The translations under genes and the position numbers were made by a program. The notes under the pieces are model-generated. The model ran no database searches. It worked only from the letters and a program-made list of their open reading frames with translations, and was not told where the DNA came from. 64,000 nucleotides of DNA from Acidobacteriota bacterium (GTDB lineage: Bacteria; Acidobacteriota; Terriglobia; Versatilivoradales; Versatilivoraceae): positions 2,554 to 66,553 of the forward strand of contig JAPPDF010000052.1 in the NCBI GenBank assembly GCA_028875575.1, written 5' to 3'. Below, piece by piece: positions 1,922 to 61,589 of this stretch (positions are counted from its first letter, which is position 1; each line of letters opens with the position of its first letter).

Positions 1922-4726
1922 CTACTTCTTGGCAGCCGCGGCGAAGTCTCCTGCCTTGACGATGGTCATCTTGTCCAGGTCCAGGTGGCGTCCGAGGGCG
2001 GATAGGATCTGGTCCGCGGTGAGAGCATCGATCTTCCGCTCGAAGTCCTCGTCCCAGGCCAGCGTTCGACCCTGAAAAAGGCGACTGGCCATGGTGCCGG
2101 CCAGGCGGTTGTCCTGAGATCGGCTCACCTGGCGGGACTGCAGGTACCCCGACTTGGCTGCCGCAATTTCCTTGGCGGTGAACCCGTCGGTGAGCGCCCG
2201 CTCAACCTCCTCCCGGAAGGCCGCTTCCACTCTTTCGATATTTTGCGGCGCCGCAATCGCCCAGGTGCTGAAGGCACCGTGCTCGTCCTTGGCTCGCGCT
2301 TCCAGATAGGCTCGAACCCCGTAGCTGAGCCCCTCTTTCTGGCGAATGCGCACCGCCAGGCGAGAGTTGAGAAATCCGCCGCCCAGCATGTAGTTGCCCA
2401 ACACCAGCGCCGGGTAGTCGGGGTGGCTGTCGCTGACAGCCAGGGGCATTCCGGCGATGAAGACTGCGTTGGCCTTGTCGGGCGTCTCTACCGAACGGTT
2501 GGCCGGGGCGATTTCCTGATAGGGGTTTTCAACTCTCTGGTAAGCACCGGGGCTGCTCCAATCGGGAAAGATCTCCTTCAGGACCTCAACGATGCTGTCG
2601 GTTTCGAAGTCCCCCGATATGGCCACTTCTCCGTCTGAGGCGCCGTAGAAGTCCCGGTGGAATCCTTTCACCTCCTCCAGAGTTGCAGACTTGATGGAGT
2701 CAATTCGCTCGTCAAAGGTGGGCGAATAGTTGACATGCCCCTTGGGATAAGTATTGCCGTGGCGCGCAAAGGTGCTCGCGGCAATCGCTTGGGGATTGCT
2801 CATCTGCTGCTCTATGGCGGCCAGTCGTTCCTCCTTGAGCGTGTTGAACTCCCCTTCCGGAAAGGAAGCCTGGCGAAACACTTCCCCGACCAGCCGCAGG
2901 ACTTCGGGAAGATTCTCCTTGACAGTCTCCATCGATGCGGAGGCGCCGGTCGCGCCTCCCGAGACGCGGCCTGTCGCCTTGAGCCGATCCAGTGCATCCT
3001 GGATCTCCTGCCTGGTGCGCCCCGCCGTGCCTCGCATGAGCATCGATCCGGTCAATCCCGCGATGATGTTCTTATGCATCAGGCTCTTCTCGTTGCCGAA
3101 ATGAAGTCTTATGTTGGCGACGACCGTGCTCCCGCGCGTTTTCTTGGGAAGCAGCGCCAGTTTCAGGTTGGATCCGATCGACAGTCGTTGCACTCGAGAC
3201 TCGATGTTACCGGGTGACGGATCGAATGCCTCACCCGCGGCGACGGCGGCGTCCCCCTTGTAGTCCTTGAGCATGGCTGCGACGTCGGGGCGTTGGGGGA
3301 TTTCGGCCCTGTCCGGATCCTCGGTGGGGACGAATTGCCCCAGGGTTCGGTTGGATGACTTCAGATAAGTGGACGCCGCCCGGTGCACATCTTCAGGCGT
3401 CACTTTTCTGATGCGGTCCCGATGGAGGAAGAAAAGGCGCCAGTCACCCATGGCTACCCATTCACTCAGGCTCAAACCCACTCGATTCACGTCGTTGAGA
3501 GCCAGATCGATGTTCTTCAGCAGTTGCGTCCGCGCCCGCTCGACCTCCTCAGCCTTGGGCGGTTCCCGCCGGATGTCCTCGACCGTGCTCAGGTAGGCCT
3601 GCCGGGCCTGCTCCAGCGAATCCTGCTGGCGCACTTCGGCGCCCAACAGCACAACTCCCGGGTCGTGTAATTGAAAGTTGAAGCCGTAGACTCGGCTGGC
3701 CTTCTTGGTTTCGACCAGTGTCTTGTGCAAACGCCCCGAGGGTGTATCGGAGAGGATATGGGTCAGGAGATCCAGGGCGGCAAAGTCGGGGTGGGATCCC
3801 GCTGGAATGTGGTAGGCGGCCATCAGCAACTGCACGTCGCCCACCCGACGCAGCGTTACCGTGCGTTCGCCATCCTGGGTGGGCTCGGAGGTATAGGGTT
3901 TCTGCAGTCGTCGGGTCGGGCGGGGAATGGGACCGAATTTCTTGGCAATCAAGGCCAGGGTGCTGGCGACCTCGAACTTTCCGGCCACCAGCAGGACGGC
4001 ATTATCGGGCTGGTAGTACTTGCGATAGAAAGCCTTCAAGCGGTCAATGGAGACGTTTTCGATGTCGGAGCGGGCGCCGATAGTGGACTTGCCGTAGTTG
4101 TGCCAGAGAAAAGCAGAGGCCAGCGTGCGCTGCATCAGGATGCGGACCGGATTGTTTTCCCCGCGCTCAAACTCGTTGCGGACCACCGTCATTTCGCTGT
4201 CCAGGTCCTTCTTGGCGATGAAGGAATTGATCATGCGGTCGGCTTCCAGATCCAGTGCCCAATCCAGATTTTTGTCGGTAGCTCTGAAGGTTTCGAAATA
4301 GTTGGTCCGGTCGAACCAGGTAGTGCCGTTGGGGCGGGCTCCATGCTCGGTCAGTTCCTGCGGGATGTTGGGGTGCCGCGGAGTGCCCTTGAAGACCAGG
4401 TGCTCCAGCAGGTGGGCCATCCCGGTCTCACCGTAACTCTCGTGCAGGGATCCCACCAGGTAGGTGATATTCACGGTAATGGTGGGCTTGGAGGGGTCGG
4501 GAAAGAGCAGAATCCGAAGCCCATTGTCCAGGCGGTATTCGGTGATTCCTTCGACCGAAGTCACCCGCTCCATTCCTTCCGGCAGGCTGGAGTCTTGCGG
4601 CCGCACGGGAACCGGCGCCGCGGCAGCGGTGGACCCCGTCCACAAAACCAGGGCGAACAAGACCACGCCCGCCAAAATCATGGCAAGGGGTCTGGAAGAG
4701 AGGGAGATTGTTCTGGGAGACTGCAT
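1922..4726 (-). CDS. M16 family zinc peptidase (insulinase/PqqL-like, two-half single chain) with N-terminal signal peptide
   Basis: Inverted zinc motif HLLEHLVFKGT (HxxEH) in the first half and a second inactive M16 half, about 930 aa. ATG 4726 is preceded by GAGGA 8 nt upstream. Hydrophobic signal MILAGVVLFALVLWTGSTAAAA. Confidence 0.85.
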   Translation of the reverse strand: MQSPRTISLSSRPLAMILAGVVLFALVLWTGSTAAAAPVPVRPQDSSLPEGMERVTSVEGITEYRLDNGLRILLFPDPSKPTITVNITYLVGSLHESYGETGMAHLLEHLVFKGTPRHPNIPQELTEHGARPNGTTWFDRTNYFETFRATDKNLDWALDLEADRMINSFIAKKDLDSEMTVVRNEFERGENNPVRILMQRTLASAFLWHNYGKSTIGARSDIENVSIDRLKAFYRKYYQPDNAVLLVAGKFEVASTLALIAKKFGPIPRPTRRLQKPYTSEPTQDGERTVTLRRVGDVQLLMAAYHIPAGSHPDFAALDLLTHILSDTPSGRLHKTLVETKKASRVYGFNFQLHDPGVVLLGAEVRQQDSLEQARQAYLSTVEDIRREPPKAEEVERARTQLLKNIDLALNDVNRVGLSLSEWVAMGDWRLFFLHRDRIRKVTPEDVHRAASTYLKSSNRTLGQFVPTEDPDRAEIPQRPDVAAMLKDYKGDAAVAAGEAFDPSPGNIESRVQRLSIGSNLKLALLPKKTRGSTVVANIRLHFGNEKSLMHKNIIAGLTGSMLMRGTAGRTRQEIQDALDRLKATGRVSGGATGASASMETVKENLPEVLRLVGEVFRQASFPEGEFNTLKEERLAAIEQQMSNPQAIAASTFARHGNTYPKGHVNYSPTFDERIDSIKSATLEEVKGFHRDFYGASDGEVAISGDFETDSIVEVLKEIFPDWSSPGAYQRVENPYQEIAPANRSVETPDKANAVFIAGMPLAVSDSHPDYPALVLGNYMLGGGFLNSRLAVRIRQKEGLSYGVRAYLEARAKDEHGAFSTWAIAAPQNIERVEAAFREEVERALTDGFTAKEIAAAKSGYLQSRQVSRSQDNRLAGTMASRLFQGRTLAWDEDFERKIDALTADQILSALGRHLDLDKMTIVKAGDFAAAAKK

Positions 4727-4757: not shown

Positions 4758-5474
4758 TCAATTCTTGACAAGCGGTGCCACTGGCTCCTTGTCGCGATTC
4801 ATCTCCGGCAAACCGCTGCCGTCAGAGCCTTTGCGGCAATAGCGGGCTTTGGCGGGCGGGAGATTCCACCACACCTGGCGGCAGTCGAACTGGTGTTGTC
4901 GGGCAAACCTGCCAATCCTCGAGTTGACCTTCCGGAGCCGGTCGCGGTCCGCGGCCTTGAGAAAGCGGCTCCTGACGCCGGGGGACAGGGAGTATTCGAA
5001 ATAGACAAACACGCCCCTGGCGGTCAGGTGGTTCATCAGGATCTCCAGGATTTCATCGACCGTCTGAACATCGAAACTGTTGAAGGGAAGTCCGCAGACG
5101 ATGAAATCGTAAGGCCGTGCCTGCTCCAATTGACGCACGTCGGCATTGTGGAGGTTGCATCGGACGCCCCGGGCGTGGAGGTCCTGATTTTGAAGGAAGC
5201 GACTCAAATACCGGCAGAACCTGGGGTTCGACTCGTAGATGTCCAGCCGGTCTCCGGGGATCAGAGACTTGAGGATCCGGGCGGTGAAGACCCCGGTGCC
5301 GGCTCCCACTTCCAGGACCGCAATGGGGCGTTCCGGCCGGTCCTGAAGGGGTTGGACAATTGCCTTGGCCAGAAGCGGTGAGCTGGGGGCGATGGCTCCC
5401 ACGGTGCCGAAACTGGACAGGACCTGGGAAAGAAAAATCCGATTCTGGTCCCAAAAAGGTCTGACTCTCCCCAT
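4758..5474 (-). CDS. Class I SAM-dependent methyltransferase
   Basis: Glycine-rich SAM motif LEVGAGTGVFT. Start assigned to the internal ATG (MGRVRPF...), because the 114-codon upstream extension is Pro/Gly/Ser-rich read-through without homology. Confidence 0.65.
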   Translation of the reverse strand: MGRVRPFWDQNRIFLSQVLSSFGTVGAIAPSSPLLAKAIVQPLQDRPERPIAVLEVGAGTGVFTARILKSLIPGDRLDIYESNPRFCRYLSRFLQNQDLHARGVRCNLHNADVRQLEQARPYDFIVCGLPFNSFDVQTVDEILEILMNHLTARGVFVYFEYSLSPGVRSRFLKAADRDRLRKVNSRIGRFARQHQFDCRQVWWNLPPAKARYCRKGSDGSGLPEMNRDKEPVAPLVKN

Positions 5475-9885: not shown

Positions 9886-10094
9886 GCCTGAGCGGCCGGT
9901 TGTTTCAAGCCGCGTCGCACGGGCAGTAGACGAGCCTTGCCGCCCAACCGCATCGGGCTTCGCCATCCGGCTCGGCTTCTGCGACTCCCCCTCAAGGGGA
10001 GAGTGATAGCTGGGGTTCTTGAAGGATGTTATGCGAATATGGAGGGCAGACGCTCGAAGATAATCAGTTGAAAAATCCTATCCGCCGGCAGTTT

Positions 10095-10289
10095 TGTGGG
10101 TTAAGGGGGAGCTGCGAAGCTGCGGCTGGCGTGGGTTACCCGGCGAGACGTCTCCTGCAAGCCATCCTTGTAGAGCTGCAACGCAGCGGCTTCGTGTAGC
10201 CCCGGACGGCAGCCCGGGGTCGTTGGAATTCCGCGCAAACCTAGCCGCGAATGCGGCGCATTTAGAGCTGCGTTTCCGAACCCACAGCC
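10095..10289 (+). repeat. Intergenic repeat element R2, copy A (candidate structured ncRNA)
   Basis: About 195 bp, about 70% identical to 32666-32859. Terminal 8-bp complementary ends TGTGGGTT/AACCCACA and several internal hairpins conserved with compensatory changes. Confidence 0.5.
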
Positions 10290-11227: not shown

Positions 11228-11252
11228 TCCTCCGAAGTGAGATTTCGGGGGG

Positions 11253-11284
11253 CTGGTGTTCTGTCTCAGAAATAGGGTTGCCAT
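11253..11284 (-). repeat. 32-bp repeat unit (copy i), minus-strand reading ATGGCAACCCTATTTCTGAGACAGAACACCAG
   Basis: One of three near-identical copies in the rsmE-OMP intergenic region. Confidence 0.6.
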
Positions 11285-11323
11285 TTTTCGGCGCGAAGCG
11301 GGGCTGGATGCTCGGAGCGGATA

Positions 11324-11355: not shown

Positions 11356-11564
11356 CTCCGATGGAGGTTCCACCGGGAAACGGTCGTAGGAAAGGTCCGT
11401 TGCGTTTCAGAGAACCGCCACCGTTGTGCTCCCCCGCCCTGGAACCTCCATCGGCCCTCCGGGTTCGGGCGGAACAGCGCCGTCGTCGTCGTCGCTCCTC
11501 CTCACAATGAGTGGGCATTGCATCGTCGTCGCTCCTAGAATGCGGCGCTGTTGCGCTCCGAAAT

Positions 11565-11596
11565 ATGGCAACCCTATTTCTGAGACAGAACACTAG
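11565..11596 (+). repeat. 32-bp repeat unit (copy iii, inverted relative to i and ii: ATGGCAACCCTATTTCTGAGACAGAACACTAG)
   Basis: 31/32 identical to copy i but on the opposite strand. It creates the spurious plus-strand ORF 11511-12104 that runs antisense to rsmE. Confidence 0.6.
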
Positions 11597-11618
11597 TCCA
11601 AGGCCGGTGCGGAAGCAA

Positions 11619-13442: not shown

Positions 13443-14558
13443 TCAACCCAGAATGTCCTTGACCCTGTCGAACAACCCCCGCTCCAGGGGCTTGTTCTCC
13501 ACCGGTGTCAGTTTCGCCAACTGCTCCAACAAGCGGCGTTGGTCCCGATTGAGCTTTCTGGGAGTCACCACGTTGACGGAGACGAATTCGTCTCCACGGC
13601 CGCGGCCGTTGACACCGGGGATGCCTTTGCCTCTCAATCGAAAGACCTTGCCACTTTGAGTGCCTGGCGGGATCGACAGGGTTTCCTCTCCTTCCAGGGT
13701 AGGGACCTTGATGGTCGCACCCAAAGCCGCCTGGGTGAAACTGATGGGAATCCTGCAGTGAATGTCGTTCTCCTGGCGCTCGAAGACTTCATGGTCTCCC
13801 ACTCTCAAGACCACGTAGAGGTCTCCCGGCGGTCCACCCTGGAGACCTCCCTCACCCTCCCCGGAATACCTCACCCTGGAACCGCTGTCGACTCCGGCCG
13901 GAATCGTCACCTGGAGGAAGCGCTCCCGGCGAAGGCGACCCTCTCCGCGGCAATCGACGCAACGATCCTTGACCAGTCGTCCCGATCCCTGGCACTGGTG
14001 GCAGGGGCGGCTGATAGTGAAAAACCCTTGCTGGTAACGCATCTGGCCCTGCCCGTGGCAGGTGGGGCAGCTGGTGGCCGTAGCCCCGGGCGAGATACCG
14101 GAACCTTGACAGGGCTCGCATGACTCCATGCGGGGCACCTTGATCCGGGTCTTCATTCCAAAGGCCGCGTCCATGAAGTCGATCTGCAGGTCGTAACGGA
14201 GGTCGGCTCCCCTGCGCGCGGAAGATTGGCGGCGGGACGCTGATCCGAACAGGTCGCCAAAGCCGAAAAAGTCGCCAAAAATGTCTCCGAATTCCGAAAA
14301 AATGGTCGGGTCGAAGCCGGCTCCCCCGCTCCCGCCGACCGAACTGTGGCCGAAACGGTCATATTGAGCCCGCTTTTGGGGATCGCCCAGAACGCTATAG
14401 GCTTCGGCAGCTTCCTTGAATTTTTCTTCGGCGGATCGGTCCCCGGGGTTCTTGTCGGGGTGGTACTTGACGGCGTGCCTGCGGTAAGCGCTCTTGATCT
14501 CCTGGTCGGAGGCCGATTTGGAAACACCGAGGACTTCGTAGTAATCGCGCTTGCTCAA
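13443..14558 (-). CDS. dnaJ: Molecular chaperone DnaJ
   Basis: J-domain (YYEVLGV…HPDKN), G/F region, four CxxCxGxG zinc repeats and a C-terminal domain. TTG start with GGGAGA SD 9 nt upstream. Confidence 0.95.
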   Translation of the reverse strand: MSKRDYYEVLGVSKSASDQEIKSAYRRHAVKYHPDKNPGDRSAEEKFKEAAEAYSVLGDPQKRAQYDRFGHSSVGGSGGAGFDPTIFSEFGDIFGDFFGFGDLFGSASRRQSSARRGADLRYDLQIDFMDAAFGMKTRIKVPRMESCEPCQGSGISPGATATSCPTCHGQGQMRYQQGFFTISRPCHQCQGSGRLVKDRCVDCRGEGRLRRERFLQVTIPAGVDSGSRVRYSGEGEGGLQGGPPGDLYVVLRVGDHEVFERQENDIHCRIPISFTQAALGATIKVPTLEGEETLSIPPGTQSGKVFRLRGKGIPGVNGRGRGDEFVSVNVVTPRKLNRDQRRLLEQLAKLTPVENKPLERGLFDRVKDILG

Positions 14559-16656: not shown

Positions 16657-17538
16657 TCATTGAAGTCGTGGCTCAGGACGAGGAATGGGGCAAGCGTCGA
16701 CCAGGCGGGTCTGTCCCAGTGCCTCCGCCTCCGACCGCATGTCCGGGTCCAGGGAGCAGGCCTCTATTCGGACGTTGAGACCCCGCCGAAAGCCGTCCTG
16801 CAAGCATGAGACAACCGCAGAGAACTCCGGTGCCTCCCCAAGGCAGGATTTGAGGGTGGCAACGTTCGAGGCCAGGTTCGAAAGTGTCTGTCCGCGCAGG
16901 GCCCCTTGCAGCAAACCCGGATCAAAGTCCAGGAGAATGGACCCGTGCTGCAGGAATCCCCGGAGGGTCCTTCGCTGGGCGCTGCCGACAAGTTTTTTGC
17001 CCGCGAATAGAATCTCGTGGTGAAGGGTGGTGGCAAAGCAGGCATGGCTGCGATGGGACCGTTGACTGCGTCTTTGCCCGACTGCCGGGCCGGCGAGGGT
17101 GGTGTCGATCCCGAGCAGTGCCAGACCCTGCTGCAGAGCTGCTGAAATTTTCCCGTAGGTATCTTGTATGGACCAGGCGGGGAAGAGGGAGCGGTCGTTG
17201 GAGATGAAGGAGTAGGTGACTTCCCGATGGTGCAGCACTGCCTTCCCCCCGGTGGCCCGGCGAGCGACCGCAATGCCATGTCGCCGACAATACCCGAAAT
17301 CCACCACCCGGGAAGCCTGTTGGGACATGCCGAGGGACAAGGTCGGTTTCGGCCAACCGTAGAAGCGCAGGAACGTCTCGACCACAGCCGATTCTACCGA
17401 GACTCGACGCAACAACAATTCATCCAGTGCCAGGTTGGAGGCTCCGTCGCCAAGTTGTTCCAGAACCAGTGCGCAGAACGGATCAGCCGGGTCGGAGACT
17501 GGACCGATACTGTATTCGGTAGCGTCGGCTGGCGCCAT
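16657..17538 (-). CDS. Lipoate-protein ligase / octanoyltransferase family protein (BPL/LPL catalytic domain)
   Basis: Conserved RRxTGGKAVLHHxEVTYSF block typical of LplA/LipB-family enzymes. Confidence 0.7.
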   Translation of the reverse strand: MAPADATEYSIGPVSDPADPFCALVLEQLGDGASNLALDELLLRRVSVESAVVETFLRFYGWPKPTLSLGMSQQASRVVDFGYCRRHGIAVARRATGGKAVLHHREVTYSFISNDRSLFPAWSIQDTYGKISAALQQGLALLGIDTTLAGPAVGQRRSQRSHRSHACFATTLHHEILFAGKKLVGSAQRRTLRGFLQHGSILLDFDPGLLQGALRGQTLSNLASNVATLKSCLGEAPEFSAVVSCLQDGFRRGLNVRIEACSLDPDMRSEAEALGQTRLVDACPIPRPEPRLQ

Positions 17539-17603
17539 GGACGGGGGTTAGGAGTGTGGGTACGCAGCCTGCCGCCGGCCTCTCGTGGGGCGAGCGATGA
17601 CAC

Positions 17604-18251: not shown

Positions 18252-18328
18252 GGCGTGTCTTCTTTCAACTCTCGTCTGACGTTAGCGCGAAAAATCCGCG
18301 GCTCGCGGAGCAACCAGACCGGGCACGA

Positions 18329-18574
18329 GCCCGCATTTCTCACCAGGGGGCATGATCATGGCGCAGGAATTTTCCCTTCAGCGCGTGCTCGCGACCGAAG
18401 AGCGTAGCGGTCACTACGGTCGAGGGAGCCTGTGCGCGCTGAATGGAAAAGGACCAGTCAGGGCATGCCCAGCGCCGTCTGTTACCTGCAAGCCCTTACC
18501 ATGGAGCCAATCAAGGTACTGAAAGATAAACTGCCTTTCGTCATGCTACCAGCGACCTGGTGAGAAATGCGGGC
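18329..18574 (+). mobile_element. MITE-like element, copy 1 (246 bp, about 20-bp terminal inverted repeats GCCCGCATTTCTCACCAGG / CCTGGTGAGAAATGCGGGC)
   Basis: Perfect terminal inverted repeats, internal nested palindromes, no coding capacity. Flanked by GA…TA. The right flank CTA on the plus strand is the TAG stop codon of degP on the minus strand. Confidence 0.7.
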
Positions 18575-20136
18575 TAGGGCACCGACCCCGTCAGGAAGAG
18601 CGTGGTAATTTCTCCCGCTTCGCGGTCCCAGCGCTTCACCAGGAATAAAAGGTTCATGCCGGACTGCAGGTCGGAGGTGAGTTCCTGCAGGTCACCGACG
18701 GTGCGGGTCGGCTTCTTGTTGATCTCCATGATCAGGTCGTGGGGTCTGATCCGGGCCTCCTCGGCAATGCTGTCGGGTTCGACCCTCATGACGTAGACTC
18801 CGCTCTCCTCATCCGACAAATTGAATTGCCGGGCCAGTCGGGGAGTGAGGTTCTGTGCGGAAATTCCCAGGCGGACCGATTCGGAAGGTCCCTCCTCTGC
18901 AGGAGCAGCGCCGCGGGAAACCGAAGGAAGGTCCTCTCGATCCATGGCCGTCAGTTGGGTGGTCCTGAGCCGGCCGTCCCGAATGTACTTGATGGTGATC
19001 CTGGTTCCCGGGGCCACGGCGGAGAGCACTCGATGCATATCGTAGGTGTCATTGATCTTGTTCCCGTCCACCTCCACGATCACGTCGCCCTGCTCGAGCC
19101 CGGCCTTGGCGGCGGGACCGTCAGCCGGGTCGGCCCTTTCCACAATCACTCCCTTGCCGTCGGCTGCACCCAAGGCCTTGAGTGTTTGAGCGGTAGCCTC
19201 CCCCTGCATCCGAATTCCTATGGCCCCGCGCCGAACCTTGCCATGTTCGATGAGCTGGTTATAGACGTTGGTGGCCAGGTTGGAGGGAAGAGCGAATCCG
19301 ATACCGAGATTTCCCCCCATTCCCCCAAAAGTGTTTTGGGTCAAAATGGCGGTGTTGACGCCGATGACCTCTCCGGCCATGTTGACCAGGGGGCCTCCGC
19401 TGTTGCCCCGGTTGATGGCGGCATCGGTTTGCAAGAACTGTTGCCAGGGCGTGGCATCTCCCATGTTCTTGCGACCGGTGGCGCTGATGATGCCGGCGGT
19501 GACCGTCTGCTCCAGACCAAAGGGGCTGCCCACCGCCAGTACCCAGTCGCCCTGACGCATCCCGTCCGAATCGCCCAACCTGGCAGCGGTGAGCTTGTCT
19601 TCGGCTTCTACCCGGATTACGGCCAGGTCGGTATTGACATCCTTGCCCACCACCTTGGCCTCGTACTCGTCTCCGGTGGACAGCTTGACGGTGATGGTGT
19701 CGGCATTTTCAACCACGTGGGCGTTGGTGAGAATATATCCCTTGGCATCCACCACGAAGCCCGATCCGAGGGACTGGCTCCTACGACTCCGGCGGGGCAT
19801 TTCCGGACCGAAGAAGCGTTCGAAAAAGTCCTGGAACGGGTCGTTGCGGTACTGCCGGCGGGGGGAAGACTGCCGCCTGACGATGGTTTCAGTGCTGATA
19901 TTGACTACCGCGTTCTCGACTTTTTGAGCCACTGTTGAAAAGTGCGACGACAGCTTGGTGGGAGAAGGCACGCTGATGGGCGCGGGCGTGGAGGCCGCCG
20001 ACCTGGCGGCGCTCACGGAATGGTCGATCATGGTGCCGATGGCCACCCCCAGGATGAGGGTTCCCAGAATCATCGAGAAGAAAAGAAGTCTGCGCCTCCT
20101 CATGGCTCTCAATATCCTTTCGACGGAAGCGATCAT
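18574..20136 (-). CDS. degP: Periplasmic serine endoprotease DegP/HtrA (Do family, trypsin domain plus two PDZ domains)
   Basis: Catalytic-triad context (TNAHVV, DLAV, GNSGGPL) and two PDZ domains. ATG 20136 with AAGGTG upstream; a GTG at 20142 is an alternative start. Confidence 0.9.
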   Translation of the reverse strand: MIASVERILRAMRRRRLLFFSMILGTLILGVAIGTMIDHSVSAARSAASTPAPISVPSPTKLSSHFSTVAQKVENAVVNISTETIVRRQSSPRRQYRNDPFQDFFERFFGPEMPRRSRRSQSLGSGFVVDAKGYILTNAHVVENADTITVKLSTGDEYEAKVVGKDVNTDLAVIRVEAEDKLTAARLGDSDGMRQGDWVLAVGSPFGLEQTVTAGIISATGRKNMGDATPWQQFLQTDAAINRGNSGGPLVNMAGEVIGVNTAILTQNTFGGMGGNLGIGFALPSNLATNVYNQLIEHGKVRRGAIGIRMQGEATAQTLKALGAADGKGVIVERADPADGPAAKAGLEQGDVIVEVDGNKINDTYDMHRVLSAVAPGTRITIKYIRDGRLRTTQLTAMDREDLPSVSRGAAPAEEGPSESVRLGISAQNLTPRLARQFNLSDEESGVYVMRVEPDSIAEEARIRPHDLIMEINKKPTRTVGDLQELTSDLQSGMNLLFLVKRWDREAGEITTLFLTGSVP

Positions 20137-20457
20137 GTTCACACCTTGAACAAAGTGTAAGTTATCGCCTCGGTGAGGGCAACCTTGAATGCGCGCGGTA
20201 CGGGAGCAGCCGGCCCCACCCTCGCCTCATGATCCTGCCAATATCTTTTTTGGTAATCGTACGGGGATATGCTAACATCCCGCCGTAATTTGGGCGAGGA
20301 CGGGCCGGGCAGTTTCGGTCCCCGGCGGACCGCCTGAGTCCCGGCGGTGGCCGCGCCCTGTGCTTTCCGGGTCCGGGACAGCATTGCTTTCGAACCCCAA
20401 TCCCTCACATCATCCCTGGCAAGGGATCCTTCGGTTCCCGACCGGCCACTATCGCCG

Positions 20458-32502: not shown

Positions 32503-32665
32503 TTCCAGTCCTCCCGTAAACCCATGTTACCAAACCCTGTCCTGCAACAAGAAACGGATCCACGAACACGATTGTACGACAAAGCTGTGAAGGGAGATCC
32601 GTGGATCAAGTGCCCCCCTACTGGGGCCAGACATTAACCGAAAGAAATTTCCACGCTCAGCAGCA

Positions 32666-32859
32666 TTGTGGGTTAGGGGAGAGCCGCGAAGCTGCGGTTG
32701 GAGTGGGTAGGCAAGGAAACGCTTACTACAAGCCATCCTTATAGAGCTGCGTAGCAGCGGCTCAGGGTAGCCCCGGGCGGCAGCCCGGGGTCGTATGGTT
32801 CTGCTCCAACCCCGCCGCGAAGGCGGCGAATCAAGAGCCGGGTCCCGCAACGCACAGCC
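32666..32859 (+). repeat. Intergenic repeat element R2, copy B (candidate structured ncRNA)
   Basis: Same orientation as copy A (10095-10289). Conserved blocks CAAGCCATCCTT(G/A)TAGAGCTGC and GTAGCCCCGG(A/G)CGGCAGCCCGGGGTCGT. Confidence 0.5.
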
Positions 32860-35133: not shown

Positions 35134-35715
35134 ATGGAAGCCGTCAGAACCTTCATCTGCCTCCAACTTCCCGCGTTCGCCAGGGAACGGCTTGCGTCCA
35201 CCCAGCACCAGTTGCGGGAGAGTGGAGCGCAAGTCAGTTGGGTCAAGCCGCACAATATCCACCTGACCCTCAAGTTTCTGGGGTCGGTCCCGGCGGAACG
35301 CCTGCATGAGGTGGTGCGGGCAGTGCAACGGGCGGTGGTGCCGGCCCCGCCCATCCAGTTGGAATTGACCGTGTTGGGTTGTTTCCCCAACAGGCGTGCG
35401 CCCAGGGTTATCTGGGCGGGGCCGAAACAGCTGCCCGAAAAGCTGAGAAACCTGCAGCAGAGGGTTGAAAAGGAGCTGGTCGCAACAGGGTTTCCTGCTG
35501 AATCACGTCCCTTCTCTCCCCATTTCACCTTGGGTAGGGTCCGATCGGGCCGAAACATTGGGAAGCTGGTGGCGGCAATGCAAGCGGCGCGGCTGGAGCC
35601 GCTGCTGTTCGAAGCAGCCGAAGTCATAGTGATGGCCAGCCGGCTCCACCCCTCTGGTGCCCTTTACACCCCCGTCTCGCGCGTCCCCTGGAATTCCCCC
35701 GACCCCGGCCACTGA
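35134..35715 (+). CDS. thpR: RNA 2',3'-cyclic phosphodiesterase ThpR (LigT-like 2H phosphoesterase)
   Basis: Two H-x-T/S-x motifs (HLTLKFLG and HFTLGRV). ATG 35134. Confidence 0.8.
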   Translation: MEAVRTFICLQLPAFARERLASTQHQLRESGAQVSWVKPHNIHLTLKFLGSVPAERLHEVVRAVQRAVVPAPPIQLELTVLGCFPNRRAPRVIWAGPKQLPEKLRNLQQRVEKELVATGFPAESRPFSPHFTLGRVRSGRNIGKLVAAMQAARLEPLLFEAAEVIVMASRLHPSGALYTPVSRVPWNSPDPGH

Positions 35716-35729
35716 GCAGGTAGCTGCTA

Positions 35730-35974
35730 GCCCGCATTTCTCACCAGGGGGCATGATCATGGCGCAGGAATTTCCCCTTCAGCGCGTGCTCGCGACCGAA
35801 GAGCGTAGCGGTTTCTACGGTCGAGGGAGCCTGTGCGCGCTGAAGGGAAAAGGACAAGCCAGGGCATGCCCAGCGCCGTCTGTGATGCGCAAGCCCTTGA
35901 CATTGAGCCAATCAAGGTGCTGAAGATAATCTACTTCTTGTAATGCCTCCAGCGGCCTGGTGAGAAATGCGGGC
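35730..35974 (+). mobile_element. MITE-like element, copy 2
   Basis: About 85% identical to copy 1, same orientation, same terminal inverted repeats. Flanks TA…TC. Track ORFs 35657-35923 (+) and 35503-35760 (-) fall inside it and are rejected. Confidence 0.7.
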
Positions 35975-36053
35975 TCGTCCTGGCATCTGCAGCCAAGACG
36001 CCTGTACGGCCCACGAGAATTCCCTATCCGATCGGCAGTTGGACTGTCGAACT

Positions 36054-37571
36054 TCAACCCTTCCTTGAGAAATACTCCTCCATGGCCTCAATTAGCGAAG
36101 CCGTGGTGTACTTTTCAGGGACGAGGTCTACCTGTAACCCCAAGTCCCTGGCAGTGCCGGCGGTGATGGGTCCGATACAGGCTACGGCTGCGCCCTGCAG
36201 GCTCTCGGCCAGGGACTTGGGGCGGGTGAGGTCGGCCAGGTTGGCGACGGTAGAGGAGCTGGTGAAGACCACCATGTGGGGAGGAGCGTCATTGAGCACT
36301 TGCGCCCATCGGAACTGTGCATTTTCCGGGGGCCCGGTTCTATAGGCCTCGACCACCTCCACGCGGGCGCCCTGTCGCTGCAGTTCCCGGGGCAACACCT
36401 CGCGGGCGACCCGGGCCCTTGGAAGCAGCACCCGCATGCCCTTGACCACCTTGCCGCGCAGGCTCTCCACCAGGCCCTCGGCCTGGTAGTCGCTGGGAAG
36501 GGTGTCCACGGCCAACTTGAAGTCAAGAACAGCCCGGCGAGTTGCCGGCCCGATGGCTGCGATACGGACCCCCTTGAGCTGTCGAATGTCGGGATGGCGT
36601 CGAAAGTACCTATTGAAGAAGTATTTGACCCCGTTAACGCTGGTGAAGATGAGCCAATCGTATCGATCGATGGTTTCAAGGGCTCGATCCAGCTTTGCCC
36701 AGGAGTCCGGTTCACGCACCTCCACCGTGGGAAAGGAGATGGCCATGGCCCCCAGCAGCTCCAGGGCTCTGCGGAAGTCCCGGGACTGGTGGCGGGGGCG
36801 GGTGATCAGGATGCGCTTTCCGAACAGGGGACGGTTGTCGAACCATCGCAGCCGCTCCCTTAGCCTGACCACTTCGCCGACAACGATCAAGGTGGGGGGA
36901 GACATTGGCGCGACTTGCTCCAGGATGGACCCCAGTGTGGCGGTGACGACCTCTTGTGAGGGACGTGTCCCCCAGCGGATCAGAGCAATGGGCGTGGACG
37001 GGCTGCGACCGTGGCGGGTAAGCTGCTCCACCACCTGCCTCAAGCTCCTGGCCCCCATAAAAAAGACCAGGGTTTCGGCGGCCGAGGAAATTTTCTTCCA
37101 GTCCAGCGCAGAATCGTCGCGGGTCGGATCCTGCTGGGCTGCCACAAAAGCCACGGTCGGACCATAGTCCCGATGGGTCAGCGGAATTCCCGCGTAGGCC
37201 GGTGCAGCCGAGCCTGCCGAGACTCCGGGCACAACCTCGAAGGGAATACAGGCCCGAGCCAGAACTTCCGCCTCCTCGCCGCCGCGTCCGAAGATGAAGG
37301 GATCGCCTCCCTTGAGGCGGGCCACCGTTTTCCCTTGGCGGGCGCGCTCCAGCAGCAGGGAATTGATCTCCGCCTGGGCAATATGGTCCCGGCCTCCCTG
37401 CTTGCCCACGTAGACTCGTTCCGCCGAGCCGGGAGCGTACCGCAGCAGTTCCCGGTTCACCAGGTGGTCGTAGATCACGCAGTCGGCCGCCTCCAGACAG
37501 CGGCGTCCCTTCAAGGTGATGAGCTCGGGATCGCCCGGACCGGCCCCGATCAGATAGACGGCCGTCTTCAT
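36054..37571 (-). CDS. Bifunctional uroporphyrinogen-III C-methyltransferase / uroporphyrinogen-III synthase (CobA-HemD fusion)
   Basis: N-terminal SUMT domain (VYLIGAGPGDPELITLKG…) followed by a HemD domain. 505 aa. Confidence 0.9.
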   Translation of the reverse strand: MKTAVYLIGAGPGDPELITLKGRRCLEAADCVIYDHLVNRELLRYAPGSAERVYVGKQGGRDHIAQAEINSLLLERARQGKTVARLKGGDPFIFGRGGEEAEVLARACIPFEVVPGVSAGSAAPAYAGIPLTHRDYGPTVAFVAAQQDPTRDDSALDWKKISSAAETLVFFMGARSLRQVVEQLTRHGRSPSTPIALIRWGTRPSQEVVTATLGSILEQVAPMSPPTLIVVGEVVRLRERLRWFDNRPLFGKRILITRPRHQSRDFRRALELLGAMAISFPTVEVREPDSWAKLDRALETIDRYDWLIFTSVNGVKYFFNRYFRRHPDIRQLKGVRIAAIGPATRRAVLDFKLAVDTLPSDYQAEGLVESLRGKVVKGMRVLLPRARVAREVLPRELQRQGARVEVVEAYRTGPPENAQFRWAQVLNDAPPHMVVFTSSSTVANLADLTRPKSLAESLQGAAVACIGPITAGTARDLGLQVDLVPEKYTTASLIEAMEEYFSRKG

Positions 37572-43759: not shown

Positions 43760-44443
43760 ATGAATGAAGAAGAGCTGAGACCGATCGTGGAGGCGCTCGT
43801 CTACCTGGCGGAGGAACCCGTCACCGTGGCTTCCATGGTCGAATTGTTGGGAAAGGAAAACGAAGCTTCCATTCGCCAAGCGCTTTCTCACCTTCGTCGC
43901 CGCTACGCCTCGCCCGAGCACGGAATCGAGATCAAGGAGATCGCCGACGGCTACAGGATGGCCACCAAGCCCGAGCATCACGCCTGGGTTCAGAAGTTTT
44001 TGAAACACCAGGCCCCAGTGATCAGGCTCTCGCTGCCTGCCTTGGAAACCCTGGCGGTGATCGCCTACAAGCAGCCGGTCACTCTCCCGGAAATCCAGGA
44101 AATTCGGGGAGTCAACGCCACGGCCGTTATGAAGACTCTGGTCGAAAAGAAACTGGTAACCGCCGGCGGGCGCAAGAACGTTGTGGGCAGGCCCATTCTT
44201 TACAAGACCACTCGAGACTTTTTGCTTCAATTCGGGCTCAAGAACCTGGGGGAACTCCCCAGCCTGGACGAATATGAGGAACTGGCGCAGGCATCCCTGG
44301 AGGGAATGGCGGTCACGAGTGGAGCCGAATCGGAAACGGGAGCGGAAGGCGCCTCCAACCGGCGGGAGACCGCCATCGCCTCCTCGAGCGCCGGCGAACA
44401 GTCGGGCGACGGTCGGGTGGTTCCCGGGAAGCAGACGCCTTGA
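43760..44443 (+). CDS. scpB: Segregation and condensation protein B
   Basis: ScpB family winged-helix pair. ATG 43760 (MNEEELRPIVEALVY…). Confidence 0.85.
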   Translation: MNEEELRPIVEALVYLAEEPVTVASMVELLGKENEASIRQALSHLRRRYASPEHGIEIKEIADGYRMATKPEHHAWVQKFLKHQAPVIRLSLPALETLAVIAYKQPVTLPEIQEIRGVNATAVMKTLVEKKLVTAGGRKNVVGRPILYKTTRDFLLQFGLKNLGELPSLDEYEELAQASLEGMAVTSGAESETGAEGASNRRETAIASSSAGEQSGDGRVVPGKQTP

Positions 44444-44448
44444 GAGCC

Positions 44449-45186
44449 ATGGTGACGGACCGGCTGCAGAAAGTCATTGCCCACGCCGGCGTTTGTTCCC
44501 GGCGCCGGGCCGAAGTCTTGATTCAGGAGGGGAGGGTTTCCGTAAACGGCAAGCCGGTCACCCGGCCAGGCGCCAAAGTGGATACCTCCCGTGACCATGT
44601 TCGAGTCGACGGGAACCGTATTCGTCCGGACGGGCGGCGAACCTATCTGCTGCTAAACAAGCCGCGAGGATATTTGTGCACCCTTTCGGACCCGGCCGGC
44701 AGGCCACTGGTGGGCCAGCTGATTCGGGGGTGCCCACCGGGAGTGAACTCGGTCGGCCGTCTGGATTTCAACACTGAAGGTCTACTGCTCTTGACCAATG
44801 ACGGCGAATTTGCCAACCGGATCGCCTCAGCCGGATCTCATTGTCCCAAGACCTATGTGGCCAAAGTGAGAGGGACTCCCAGTCGGGCCATTCTGGCGAG
44901 GGTCTCGAAAGGACTCTCCCTGGACGGAAGAAAGCTGGCGCCTTGCAAAATCGCCATGGCGAAGCAGGGCGACAACTGTTGGCTGAGAATTACGTTGATC
45001 GAGGGCAGAAACAACCAGATCCGTAAAATGTTTGACCGTGTCGGACACTCTGTGATCAAGTTACGACGCATCCAGATCGGGTATTTGAAGGACGCCCGGC
45101 TGAAACCGGGGGAGTACCGCCACTTGAGCCGCCAGGAAGTGATGCGCTTTCTGGATGCGAAGTCGGATACACGCAAGGAAGCGTGA
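44449..45186 (+). CDS. rluB: Ribosomal large subunit pseudouridine synthase B (S4 domain plus RsuA-type catalytic domain)
   Basis: S4 domain (…HAGVCSRRRAEVLI…) and catalytic motif GRLDFNTEGLLLLTNDG. Confidence 0.85.
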   Translation: MVTDRLQKVIAHAGVCSRRRAEVLIQEGRVSVNGKPVTRPGAKVDTSRDHVRVDGNRIRPDGRRTYLLLNKPRGYLCTLSDPAGRPLVGQLIRGCPPGVNSVGRLDFNTEGLLLLTNDGEFANRIASAGSHCPKTYVAKVRGTPSRAILARVSKGLSLDGRKLAPCKIAMAKQGDNCWLRITLIEGRNNQIRKMFDRVGHSVIKLRRIQIGYLKDARLKPGEYRHLSRQEVMRFLDAKSDTRKEA

Positions 45187-45322
45187 GAATCGCGGGCTCG
45201 GGTTGGAACCGGAGAGACGGAATCGATCCGTATTCTCACCCCTGGCCCGCGGGGGCGCAGGCACTGGTGTCCCGCACTGCCAACCCGGTGAGAAATATGG
45301 GCTTGTCCCACGGGGTGGACCC

Positions 45323-59622: not shown

Positions 59623-60067
59623 CATTCATCCCAGGAATCTCTCCTTCGTAGCCTTGACAGACGAGGGCCTGGAGCGCCGGCTTTGGAAAATCAGTCTCGG
59701 CCTGGGCGTTCCGGCCTGTCTGGCAGCCCTGATCCTCGGCGGACTCGACTCGGGCCTGGGCTTCCTGGCAGGGGCGGTGCTCTCCTGGATCAACTTCAGG
59801 TGGCTCAAGCAAGGGGTGGACCATTTCCTGGAAAGCGCCCGCTCGGCGCAGCCGACACCCAAAAGGGCGGCGCGTGCTGCTATCTTCAAGTATTTCTTAA
59901 GATACGCCTTGATTGGGCTGTCACTCTATGCTACATTCCGCGTTGATCTGCTGGAGGTCTTTGGATTTTTCTCGGGCCTTGTCTTGCTGGTCGGTGCCGT
60001 GCTGGTCGAGTGTGTATTGCAAGTGATCAAAGGTTGGGACGAGGACCCTTGCCATGGAACACGGTAG
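59609..60067 (+). CDS. atpI: ATP synthase protein I (AtpI-like, four TM helices)
   Basis: Hydrophobic four-helix protein overlapping atpZ and ending at atpB. Position typical of atpI. Confidence 0.55.
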   Translation: MGRNDIHPRNLSFVALTDEGLERRLWKISLGLGVPACLAALILGGLDSGLGFLAGAVLSWINFRWLKQGVDHFLESARSAQPTPKRAARAAIFKYFLRYALIGLSLYATFRVDLLEVFGFFSGLVLLVGAVLVECVLQVIKGWDEDPCHGTR

Positions 60068-60803
60068 CACCTGGATAGCCGAATGGGTCAACAGCACCTT
60101 GGGTCCGGTGGTGGCGGCTCTGCTCGGCAGTCTCTATGGGCTGTTTGGCTACACATACACTCCCGGGCACATGATCATTCCCGAGCATGTTACCTTTGCC
60201 GTACTGGTGTTTCTCTTCTGCGCGGTGTTTTTCCCCATCGCCGGGCGGTCGTTTTCTCTGGAGAAGCCGGGCAAGATACAACAGATTCTGGAGCTGGTAG
60301 TTGAATTCCTCAACGGGCAGTTGGAGGAGATCATCGGCCATGGGGCCAAAAAGTACCTTCCCATGGTGGCGACCATCGGAATCTTCATTCTGCTGATGAA
60401 CCTTTGCGGACAGATTCCGGGATTTGCCTCTCCGACCAGCAGCATCAACGTGACCGTCGGCTGCGCCCTGGTGGTGTTCCTCTACTACAACTACCTGGGG
60501 ATTCGAAAGCAAGGATTGGTTTCCTATCTCAAGCACTTTGCCGGTCCGGTGCCCCTGATGGCGCCGTTGATGGTTCCGATAGAAATCATCAGCCACTTGG
60601 CCCGACCCTTTTCGCTGTCGGTCCGTCTTTTTGCCAACATCTTCGGAGAGCACCAGGTAGTGGCCGTGTTCTTTGCCCTGGTCCCCTTCATCGTGCCGCT
60701 TCCCATCATGGCGCTGGGAGTGTTTGCCAGTTTTCTGCAGGCTTTCATCTTCATGGTCCTGACCATGATCTATATTGCGGGAGCCGTCTCGGAGGAGCAT
60801 TAA
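60054..60803 (+). CDS. atpB: F0F1 ATP synthase subunit a
   Basis: Subunit a family with conserved Arg in LSVRLFANIFGEH. Stop TAA 60801-60803. Confidence 0.9.
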   Translation: MEHGSTWIAEWVNSTLGPVVAALLGSLYGLFGYTYTPGHMIIPEHVTFAVLVFLFCAVFFPIAGRSFSLEKPGKIQQILELVVEFLNGQLEEIIGHGAKKYLPMVATIGIFILLMNLCGQIPGFASPTSSINVTVGCALVVFLYYNYLGIRKQGLVSYLKHFAGPVPLMAPLMVPIEIISHLARPFSLSVRLFANIFGEHQVVAVFFALVPFIVPLPIMALGVFASFLQAFIFMVLTMIYIAGAVSEEH

Positions 60804-61048
60804 CCCGCATTTCTCACCAGGCCGCTGGTGGCAGGACGAAGGCTAGTTTATCTGTCAGTACCTTGATTGGCTCCATGCAAAGGGCTTGCGGATAACAGAC
60901 GGCGCTGGGCACGCTCTGGCTGGTCTTTTTCCCTCCAGCGCGCACATGCTCCCTCGACCGTAGTGACCGCTACGCTCTTCGCTCGCGAGCACGCGCTTGA
61001 GGGAAAAATCCTGCACCATGATCATGCCCCCTGGTGAGAAATGCGGGT
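60803..61048 (-). mobile_element. MITE-like element, copy 3 (inverted orientation), inserted between atpB and atpE
   Basis: Reverse complement of copies 1 and 2, same terminal inverted repeats, flanked by TA on both sides. The left TA belongs to the atpB TAA stop. Track ORF 60997-61182 inside it is rejected. Confidence 0.7.
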
Positions 61049-61226
61049 TAAGCCTCAGAGGTCACGGCGCCGGCAAGGTCGAATTCGACCGTCCCTGCCA
61101 CTTGTGTGAGCCCGGGATGCACGAGGGGTTCTCGGGAACCACCTCCAAGTGGCGCTTCATTGGTTCCAGCGGAGCTCCTTAAGATCGGGTATCCGCGGCG
61201 AACCCCAACCGAAAGGAGAATCCACC

Positions 61227-61589
61227 GTGAAGCGATTTTACCTGGCAGTCTTCATCGGCATCGTCGTTCTGTTGACGGCATCGCCGGTTTTTGCCCAAAC
61301 CGATGACACCAGCTGGTGGCCGTTTTCGACGGAAGGTACCGGCAGTCACTGGCATTACATCAGCATCGGTTTCGCCATGGCCTTCGCCGCCGCCATTTGC
61401 GGCCTGGCCCAGGGGCGGGCCGTCTCGGCAGCCTGCGAAAGCCTCGCCAGAAATCCCGGAGCCGCAGCTTCCATCCGATTTGCCCTGTTGCTGGGGCTGG
61501 TGCTCATCGAATCGCTGGTCCTCTACACGCTGCTGATTGCCTTCATGCTTTACTTCAAGCTACCGGCAATTCCCCCAACTCCCTTCTAG
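61227..61589 (+). CDS. atpE: F0F1 ATP synthase subunit c with N-terminal signal-like extension
   Basis: C-terminal hairpin with GxGxGxG-like helix 1 (AICGLAQGRAVSAA) and the ion-binding Glu (LIESLVL). GTG 61227 is 7 nt after AAAGGAGAA. Hydrophobic N-terminal segment AVFIGIVVLLTASPVFA. Confidence 0.8.
   Translation: MKRFYLAVFIGIVVLLTASPVFAQTDDTSWWPFSTEGTGSHWHYISIGFAMAFAAAICGLAQGRAVSAACESLARNPGAAASIRFALLLGLVLIESLVLYTLLIAFMLYFKLPAIPPTPF

Follow-up and report, generated by a model that had tools for sequence, protein, structure and literature searches.

What are the three closely similar, non-coding repeats of about 244 bp that stand at or near the ends of genes in this stretch of DNA (the window, by which we mean the whole 64 kb that was analysed), and which enzyme could have brought them there? 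The original prediction took them for a family of miniature transposons and, from an apparent TA duplication, named an IS630 or Tc1/mariner transposase as the mover. The first half of that proposal fares well, since the repeats have terminal inverted repeats (TIRs), no conserved open reading frame, numerous copies in other genomes, sites filled in one relative and empty in another, and autonomous elements that share their ends; the second half does not, because full-length elements with matching ends encode a transposase of the IS1380 family. We consider it very probable that the repeats in the window are miniature transposons (MITEs) with no transposase of their own, bounded by the ends of an IS1380-family insertion sequence (IS). 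The family, which has the ends of an IS1380-family clade, is new, and its kind is already known; the sole feature of it that could exceed the ordinary is a covarying cargo module.

Copies A (18330-18573, 244 bp) and B (35731-35973, 243 bp) lie on the plus strand and copy C (60804-61047, 244 bp) is inverted on the minus strand, in the places and orientations first noted, except that one surplus base had been counted at each end. Both ends of all three carry a perfect 18-bp TIR, CCCGCATTTCTCACCAGG (18330-18347 and 18556-18573 in A, 35731-35748 and 35956-35973 in B, 60804-60821 and 61030-61047 in C), where inverted repeats of about 20 bp had been proposed; exact matches to it number 6 in 64 kb against 0.1 expected, a count that 0 of 100 shuffles equal. 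Pairwise identity is 90.2% between A and B and 91.0% between A and C, slightly higher than the internal identity of about 85% estimated earlier, and an alignment of the copies with 20 nt of flank on each side has a mean column identity of 89%. As expected of elements described as having no ORF, only non-conserved chance ORFs overlap the copies. The flanks first read as gA/TA, TA/Tc and TA/TA are correct, and become, as four bases, CGAG (18326-18329, which we read as a decayed CTAG) and CTAG (18574-18577) for copy A; CTAG (35727-35730) and CTCG (35974-35977) for copy B; and TTAA (60800-60803) and TTAA (61048-61051), a perfect direct repeat, for copy C. The window also holds a relic of about 74 bp (45229-45301) with degenerate ends CCGTATTCTCACCCCTGG ... 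CCCGGTGAGAAATATGGG, in which a TIR match with 3 mismatches (45284-45301) pairs with a degenerate left end (45229-45246) recognised by eye; it has lost the internal module, and sits just 3′ of the stop of ORF 44440-45186.

Have these repeats moved? A scan of one genome per species with the 18-mer end found it at at least 120 loci in Acidobacteriota, Gamma- and Alphaproteobacteria, Planctomycetota, Myxococcota, Bacteroidota, and Actinomycetota, so that further copies do exist outside the window; the acidobacterial carriers among the loci listed are Ca. Versatilivorator, other Terriglobia, Bryobacterales, and Acanthopleuribacter. Between 61 and 64 paired copies could be extracted from these loci, most of about 240 bp and some of 60 to 350 bp. 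An all-against-all search of their flanks, looking for empty sites in relatives, yielded three filled/empty pairs: i) copy A is missing from its site in Ca. Versatilivorator sp. OZ241970 (locus L024), where a single CTAG stands at 4071-4074 of that locus; ii) conversely, the window is empty at 17529-17532 (CCAG on the minus strand), where L024 carries a 241-bp copy at 4879-5119 flanked by CCAG and CTCG, that is, with 4 extra bases of which just 2 of 4 are identical; and iii) a copy in locus L100 is absent from locus L035, where the site is empty. Each empty site holds one tetranucleotide. The flanks of the window and L024 are about 84-88% identical and otherwise collinear, and as they differ by filled and empty sites, the insertions (or precise losses) must postdate the split of the two lineages. 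The L024 copy of the second pair lies 10 nt inside the window's longest-ORF start of a lipoate-ligase-like gene (ATGGCGCCAG|, window 17529-17539); either this gene truly starts at a point further 3′, or the insertion changed the 5′ end of its L024 counterpart.

The same data bear on the view that the repeats are immobile, being REP/BIME-like intergenic repeats or terminator hairpins that were spread by recombination or retained from an ancestor. An intergenic location at gene ends would suit such repeats, as would a high degree of structure (the strand of copy A folds at -119.5 kcal/mol, z = -7.1 against shuffles), but they should not have reciprocal filled and empty sites in otherwise collinear flanks, defined target repeats on either side, ends identical to those of transposase-bearing elements, or a phyletic distribution incompatible with vertical descent. 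The empty sites refute this explanation, which we hold to be extremely improbable.

If the repeats are mobile, which transposase moves them? Locus L009 contains, at 336-2046, an element of 1711 bp with identical 18-bp TIRs and a single ORF of 458 aa that matches PF13701 (DDE_Tnp_1_4) at E=1e-155 and the NCBIfam model NF033539 "IS1380 family transposase" at E=1e-118, each of them passing the curated cut-off. From independent assemblies come twelve more distinct full-length elements, in which the first 14 nt of the ends are the same and the four-base flanks are the YTAR described below; every further full-length element fetched (L202-L205, L245, L247, L248, L251, L253, and L254-L263) starts with CCCGCATTTCTCAC and closes with its complement. 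All 13 of the 13 distinct full-length elements with these ends and an intact transposase encode one of the IS1380 family, the type having been identified directly in L009, L202-L205, L245, L247, L248, L251, and L253, and in L254 by identity to P0102. A degraded fourteenth, L028, has a frameshifted IS1380-type ORF about 46% identical to the L009 protein, 3 mismatches in its right TIR, and flanks that have decayed away from YTAR. The autonomous elements are thus about 1.7 kb long (1711 bp in L009, 1702 bp in L254-L263), with one 458-aa ORF and ends in CCCGC; homologues of the L009 transposase are numerous and lie on short contigs, which is where a repeated IS would be expected. In the 64-kb window, tblastn with the partner transposase found no IS1380-type transposase, and tblastn found no transposase in any of the Versatilivorator loci fetched; judging from the shared ends, an IS1380-type enzyme acting in trans is the candidate partner of the window copies. 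MITE and IS share just 19-29 bp at each end, and the MITE is therefore not a simple internal-deletion derivative of the IS. That the interior of the MITE arose from the ends of the IS was considered and rejected, both because of these short matches and because a covariance model of the module (CM R1) finds it in no full-length IS.

The original prediction would instead have the element run from (A/G)CCCGC to GCGGG(T/C), duplicate TA, and be served by a mariner-like transposase in trans. IS630 prefers CTAG and duplicates TA. The flank pattern is indeed IS630-like: its central TA hardly varies on either side, and pairs other than CTAG fit "TA plus complementary terminal base" more often than a perfect 4-bp repeat, both in the MITEs and in four full-length ISs. 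Against this, the transposase is of the IS1380 type in all the full-length elements recovered with these ends, and we saw no IS630-type partner; the terminal base varies (left G/A, right T/C) among ten 1702-bp ISs that are 100% identical; and the terminal state does not cluster on the transposase tree. An IS630/mariner-type MITE is largely refuted as to the family of the transposase, and we think it very unlikely. What this explanation treats as heritable element sequence, the (A/G)...(T/C) base, is flank: the ten contigs L254-L263 carry the 1702-bp IS with 0 differences between any pair, whereas all four positions flanking it are variable (CTAG, TTAG, or CTAA on the left; TTAA, TTAG, or CTAG on the right). 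Because the base beside CCCGC varies among ISs that are themselves 100% identical, it belongs to the flank, and the element is CCCGC...GCGGG. The model of "TA plus heritable terminal base" is rejected on the same grounds, the base being scattered on the transposase tree. Flanks in L254-L263 are also alike further out, for example cgaagg(a/t)(t/g)g(c/t)CTAG, and one of them resembles the reverse complement of the opposite flank of another copy, which suggests that this IS lands repeatedly in another repeat family.

With an IS1380-family partner as the preferred reading, what is its target? Flank composition departs from random at four positions only on each side, C/T, T, A, and G/A. The pair CTAG/CTAG occurs 20 to 25 times (20 of 61 in one count), TTAA/TTAA and CTAA/CTAA twice each, and the next commonest pairs, TTAG/CTAG and CGAG/CTAG, three times each; the rest include several pairs that are mixed or decayed. 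Position -1 on the left and position +4 on the right are not independent (Fisher p=3e-4). To judge from these flanks, the recognised unit is YTAR (CTAG in preference to TTAA, CTAA, or TTAG) with TA as its invariant core, and the duplicated unit is most likely the 4-bp YTAR, a length that is strongly inferred; with a palindromic target, models of 2 and 4 bp predict the same empty site, and the stagger is hidden. We rejected the idea that CTAG belongs to a TIR of 22 bp and that nothing is duplicated, because one CTAG remains at the empty sites. Decayed flanks are mostly CGAG/CTCG and CCAG/CTGG, single changes in the central TA of CTAG, and could be a sign that CTAG is generally unstable in these genomes; mismatches between the flanks of MITEs would fit a decay of about 10% per site. 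The unlike flanks of full-length ISs (CTAA/TTAG in three, CTAA/TTAA in one) are another matter, as a simple fill-in duplication of 4 bp does not predict them in young elements. They may come from chimeric short-read contigs or from decay; alternatively, by analogy, the non-identical YTAR flanks of young ISs may represent a piggyBac-like carry-over of donor flank, which would link IS1380 chemistry to that of piggyBac.

A YTAR target also accounts for the position of the repeats relative to genes. The ORF at 18574-20142 on the minus strand encodes a 522-aa HtrA/DegP-type protease (Pfam), and its TAG stop is the CTA at 18574-18576, within the right flank of copy A; the ORF at 60054-60803 on the plus strand is atpB (Pfam), its TAA stop at 60801-60803 lies within the left flank of copy C, and atpE comes next, so that copy C sits within the atp operon between atpB and atpE. 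Both stops directly abut the element, as had been noted when the flanking TA was assigned to the degP TAG on the minus strand and to the atpB TAA, and the leading T of the left TTAA of copy C is the third base of the final His codon of atpB. Copy B lies between a LigT-like ORF (stop 35713-35715) and a HemD/methyltransferase ORF (stop 36054-36056, minus strand), 12 nt past the TGA of the former and not on a stop codon. The pattern of A and C recurs through the family: in 22 of 64 copies a stop codon in the flank closes an open frame of 120 codons or more, and such stops end these frames on 26 of 115 sides, compared with 13 and 9 in two control frames; in 4 copies they do so on both sides, between convergent genes. 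Every YTAR holds TAG or TAA on one or both strands, and CTAG and TTAA do so on both. Copies therefore stand exactly on gene ends because YTAR contains a stop codon, which the duplication regenerates on the side of the gene.

Insertion into host stops without damage to the coding sequence, as first proposed, is thus general for the family, and relatives of the window's atpB bear it out, since the protein ends in ...EEH* throughout the metagenome atpB loci just as it does in the window. We were unable to find a strain-level empty site at atpB among 80 metagenome atpB loci, the closest of which are 77-82% identical at the protein level. An exact-protein look-up gave a single contig with an identical atpB among the matches listed (Logan contig L121), and this contig is filled and breaks inside copy C. 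MITE copies break short-read assemblies and could be mistaken for regulatory RNAs, and so present a hazard to annotation. They also explain, in terms of mechanism, why a transposon placed on a stop codon need do its host no harm, even where it lies between convergent genes or within the atp operon.

We picture transposition as follows. An IS1380-type DDE transposase encoded outside the window would bind the CCCGCATTTCTCAC... ends; the element is inserted, as flanks and empty sites show, into YTAR, mostly CTAG and less often TTAA, CTAA, or TTAG; one tetranucleotide is left on each side, as the flank statistics show, with 4 bp much the better supported length over 2 bp; and in GC-rich genomes many of the tolerated YTAR sites are host stop codons, with the stop regenerated on the gene side. 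The interior does not come from the parent IS, but consists of a 129-nt irregular hairpin module beside one TIR, with about 80 nt of variable sequence after it; compensatory changes preserve the pairing of the module in different subfamilies and phyla.

What, then, is the interior? When copies from Acidobacteriota and Pseudomonadales are aligned, the left two-thirds prove to be conserved, with compensatory changes. This is the 129-nt module from which CM R1 was built. It directly abuts the left TIR of copy A at 18348-18476 on the plus strand (146.8 bits; the variable region follows at 18477-18555), and occupies 35749-35877 on the plus strand in copy B (152.1 bits) and 60901-61029 on the minus strand in copy C (144.4 bits); in every case it lies directly beside one TIR and scores 144-152 bits. 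In a gammaproteobacterial subfamily of 240 bp, which BLAST ties to the window copies through the TIRs only, CM R1 still scores 45-62 bits. Among 44 copies, pairing holds in 93.7% of cells, and both partners have changed in 30 of 34 pairs, counts that are inflated by the fitting of this alignment (A7) to the model structure; slid controls give a covariation score of 0.05-0.15 where the module gives 0.65, a value attained by 0 of 500 shuffles. A MAFFT alignment that was not fitted to the model, when folded by RNAalifold, recovers the core hairpin. The unpaired motifs GCAGGAU, AAGAC, CGAA(A/G)AGCGUAGC, and GAG(G/U)GA are kept across subfamilies whose stems are wholly different. Certain MITE subfamilies carry small extra palindromes, GCACTCTTCTCAAGAGTGC near the 5′ end of the module and TACACACGGGCACGTG inside its main stem (L089, L068 at 3874-4131, L073, L099; L070, L085, L112, L077, L069), and the module is therefore modular and tolerant of hairpin insertions.

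Such conservation raises the possibility that the repeats are primarily genes for a structured RNA (or single-stranded DNA), the module being what is selected and the IS1380 ends merely the vehicle that spreads it. Several observations would fit: covariation in the module is strong; the unpaired motifs outlast their stems; the parent IS has no module; and G-U cells outnumber A-C cells by 119 to 33, including a conserved tandem G-U, an excess that hints at function on one strand. Other observations tell against it. A few inherited pairs account for most of the G-U excess (18 pairs have some G-U and 14 some A-C), and palindromes can retain their pairing by template switching, with no selection on a product. 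No conserved promoter or terminator was found in the element, where copy B has one weak outward TTGAGC-16-GATAAT and a weak antisense terminator-like hairpin occurs in the acidobacterial subfamily only; nor does the module show an orientation bias relative to transcription of the host genes that read toward it (12 sense, 16 antisense). An Rfam search of the module gave no match at gathering score and only a chance mir-622 at E<=10, and the gammaproteobacterial copy had no match, so that no Rfam relative is apparent. Finally, deletion derivatives that lack the module persist (L112 at 53-128, L032, and the relic at 45229-45301 of the window).

The absence of both an orientation bias and a conserved promoter leaves an RNA role unsupported, and we regard a primarily structured gene as a minority reading, possible but rather doubtful. 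We are equally tentative about the related proposal that the module is a functional one-strand structured nucleic acid, an undescribed RNA or a folded single-stranded DNA, that has spread across phyla between IS1380 ends. On the preferred reading of the repeats as IS1380-dependent MITEs, our best guess would be that the module aids the persistence or transposition of the element in cis, for example as a folded single strand or as a platform for binding a host factor or the transposase; it does not appear to serve the host. Whatever its role, the covarying module, present in both Acidobacteriota and Gammaproteobacteria, may prove to be a new structured element and is a marker of transfer across phyla. 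The vector of such transfer shows no sign of being a phage, as a CM search did not find the module in viral contigs. Viral contigs do contain 39 single 15-mer matches to the end, most of them with no YTAR flanks, as chance matches would be; about five that have YTAR flanks may be real ends.

How do these elements compare with known systems? With the IS1380 family (IS1380, ISEcp1, IS1247, and ISPme1, for example) they share, through their partners, a 458-aa DDE_Tnp_1_4/NF033539 transposase, a length of about 1.70 kb, short TIRs beginning with CC, and a short target duplication. According to ISfinder, members of the family are about 1.55-2.0 kb long, have one ORF and inverted repeats that begin with CC, and make direct repeats of 4-5 bp. 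Set against direct repeats of 4-5 bp, the four flanking positions here are target-derived, the left and right tetranucleotides are often non-identical, and the palindrome hides the stagger. For IS1247 a direct repeat of 5 bp is reported (PMC3281130). ISEcp1 and ISPme1 can capture adjacent DNA by a one-ended process (PMC9330008), which by analogy offers a possible route for foreign cargo to come between two ends. The window copies differ from the family in having no transposase and only about 19-29 bp in common at each end; they differ from it also in their strict YTAR/CTAG target and in being MITE derivatives, neither of which is described for the family in the literature searched, where we likewise found no account of this end sequence or MITE family and no paper that connects IS1380 with CTAG or with such MITEs.

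The elements also resemble piggyBac, whose bacterial relatives the IS1380-family transposases are. The piggyBac end has the form 5′-CCC...GGG-3′. Ends of that form are found here too, as are a 4-bp flank repeat and a palindromic four-base target with a central TA, although the target is TTAA for piggyBac and YTAR (TTAA included) for the present elements, which are bacterial and prefer CTAG. The piggyBac elements are eukaryotic relatives for which IS1380 has served as outgroup (PMC10813416). Unlike flanks on the two sides of one element are, by this analogy, only a hint of donor-flank carry-over. What the window copies and their autonomous relatives provide is a concrete and testable non-autonomous partner system for IS1380-family transposases, with a defined four-base site as target.

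In genomic behaviour the closest analogy is with MITEs of the Correia type. The Neisseria Correia elements (NEMIS) and IS630-derived MITEs such as RUP are small, TIR-bounded, and non-coding, with TA at their junctions; they lie beside or between genes, can be co-transcribed with them, and can fold into long hairpins. The present family differs in its ends, in the family of its partner transposase, in its tetranucleotide target, and in an interior that is a covarying module shared across phyla rather than a simple palindrome of the ends. Elements of the IS5 group make a 4-bp duplication of YTAR/CTAG-like targets, but the ends here are unlike those of IS5, and the transposase between them is of the IS1380 type.

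Other repeats and motifs lie near these copies or elsewhere in the window. The spacer between atpB and atpE contains, at 61097-61153, a conserved hairpin motif CCACTTG-TGTGAGCCCGGGATGCACGAGGGGTTCTCGGGAACCACCTCC-AAGTGG, about 75 nt before the GTG of atpE at 61228; the core of this hairpin is 86-98% conserved in the same spacer of many acidobacterial metagenome atpB loci (L123-L146), it contains a CACCUCC stretch resembling an anti-Shine-Dalgarno sequence, and Rfam gives no match to it at E<=1. In nine of the relatives (L126, L128, L129, and L131-L136) a different palindromic repeat (CAGTGGCGAGTG...CTCGCCACTCGCCACT) stands directly 3′ of the atpB stop, and in Acidobacteriota hairpin repeats seem to have settled at the 3′ end of atpB more than once. 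A pair of direct repeats, 84-86% identical, occupies 10088-10223 and 32660-32794, with a third partial match at 14067-14101; the copy at 32660-32794 holds the window's sole Rfam match at gathering score (Acido-Lenti-1, 32745-32790 on the minus strand, 42.8 bits), and Rfam does not report the copy at 10088-10223. Lastly, segments of 70 nt at 11250-11319 and 11530-11599 form an inverted repeat, 83% complementary with its arms 210 nt apart, which may represent either a palindrome that flanks a gene or a further small element bounded by TIRs.
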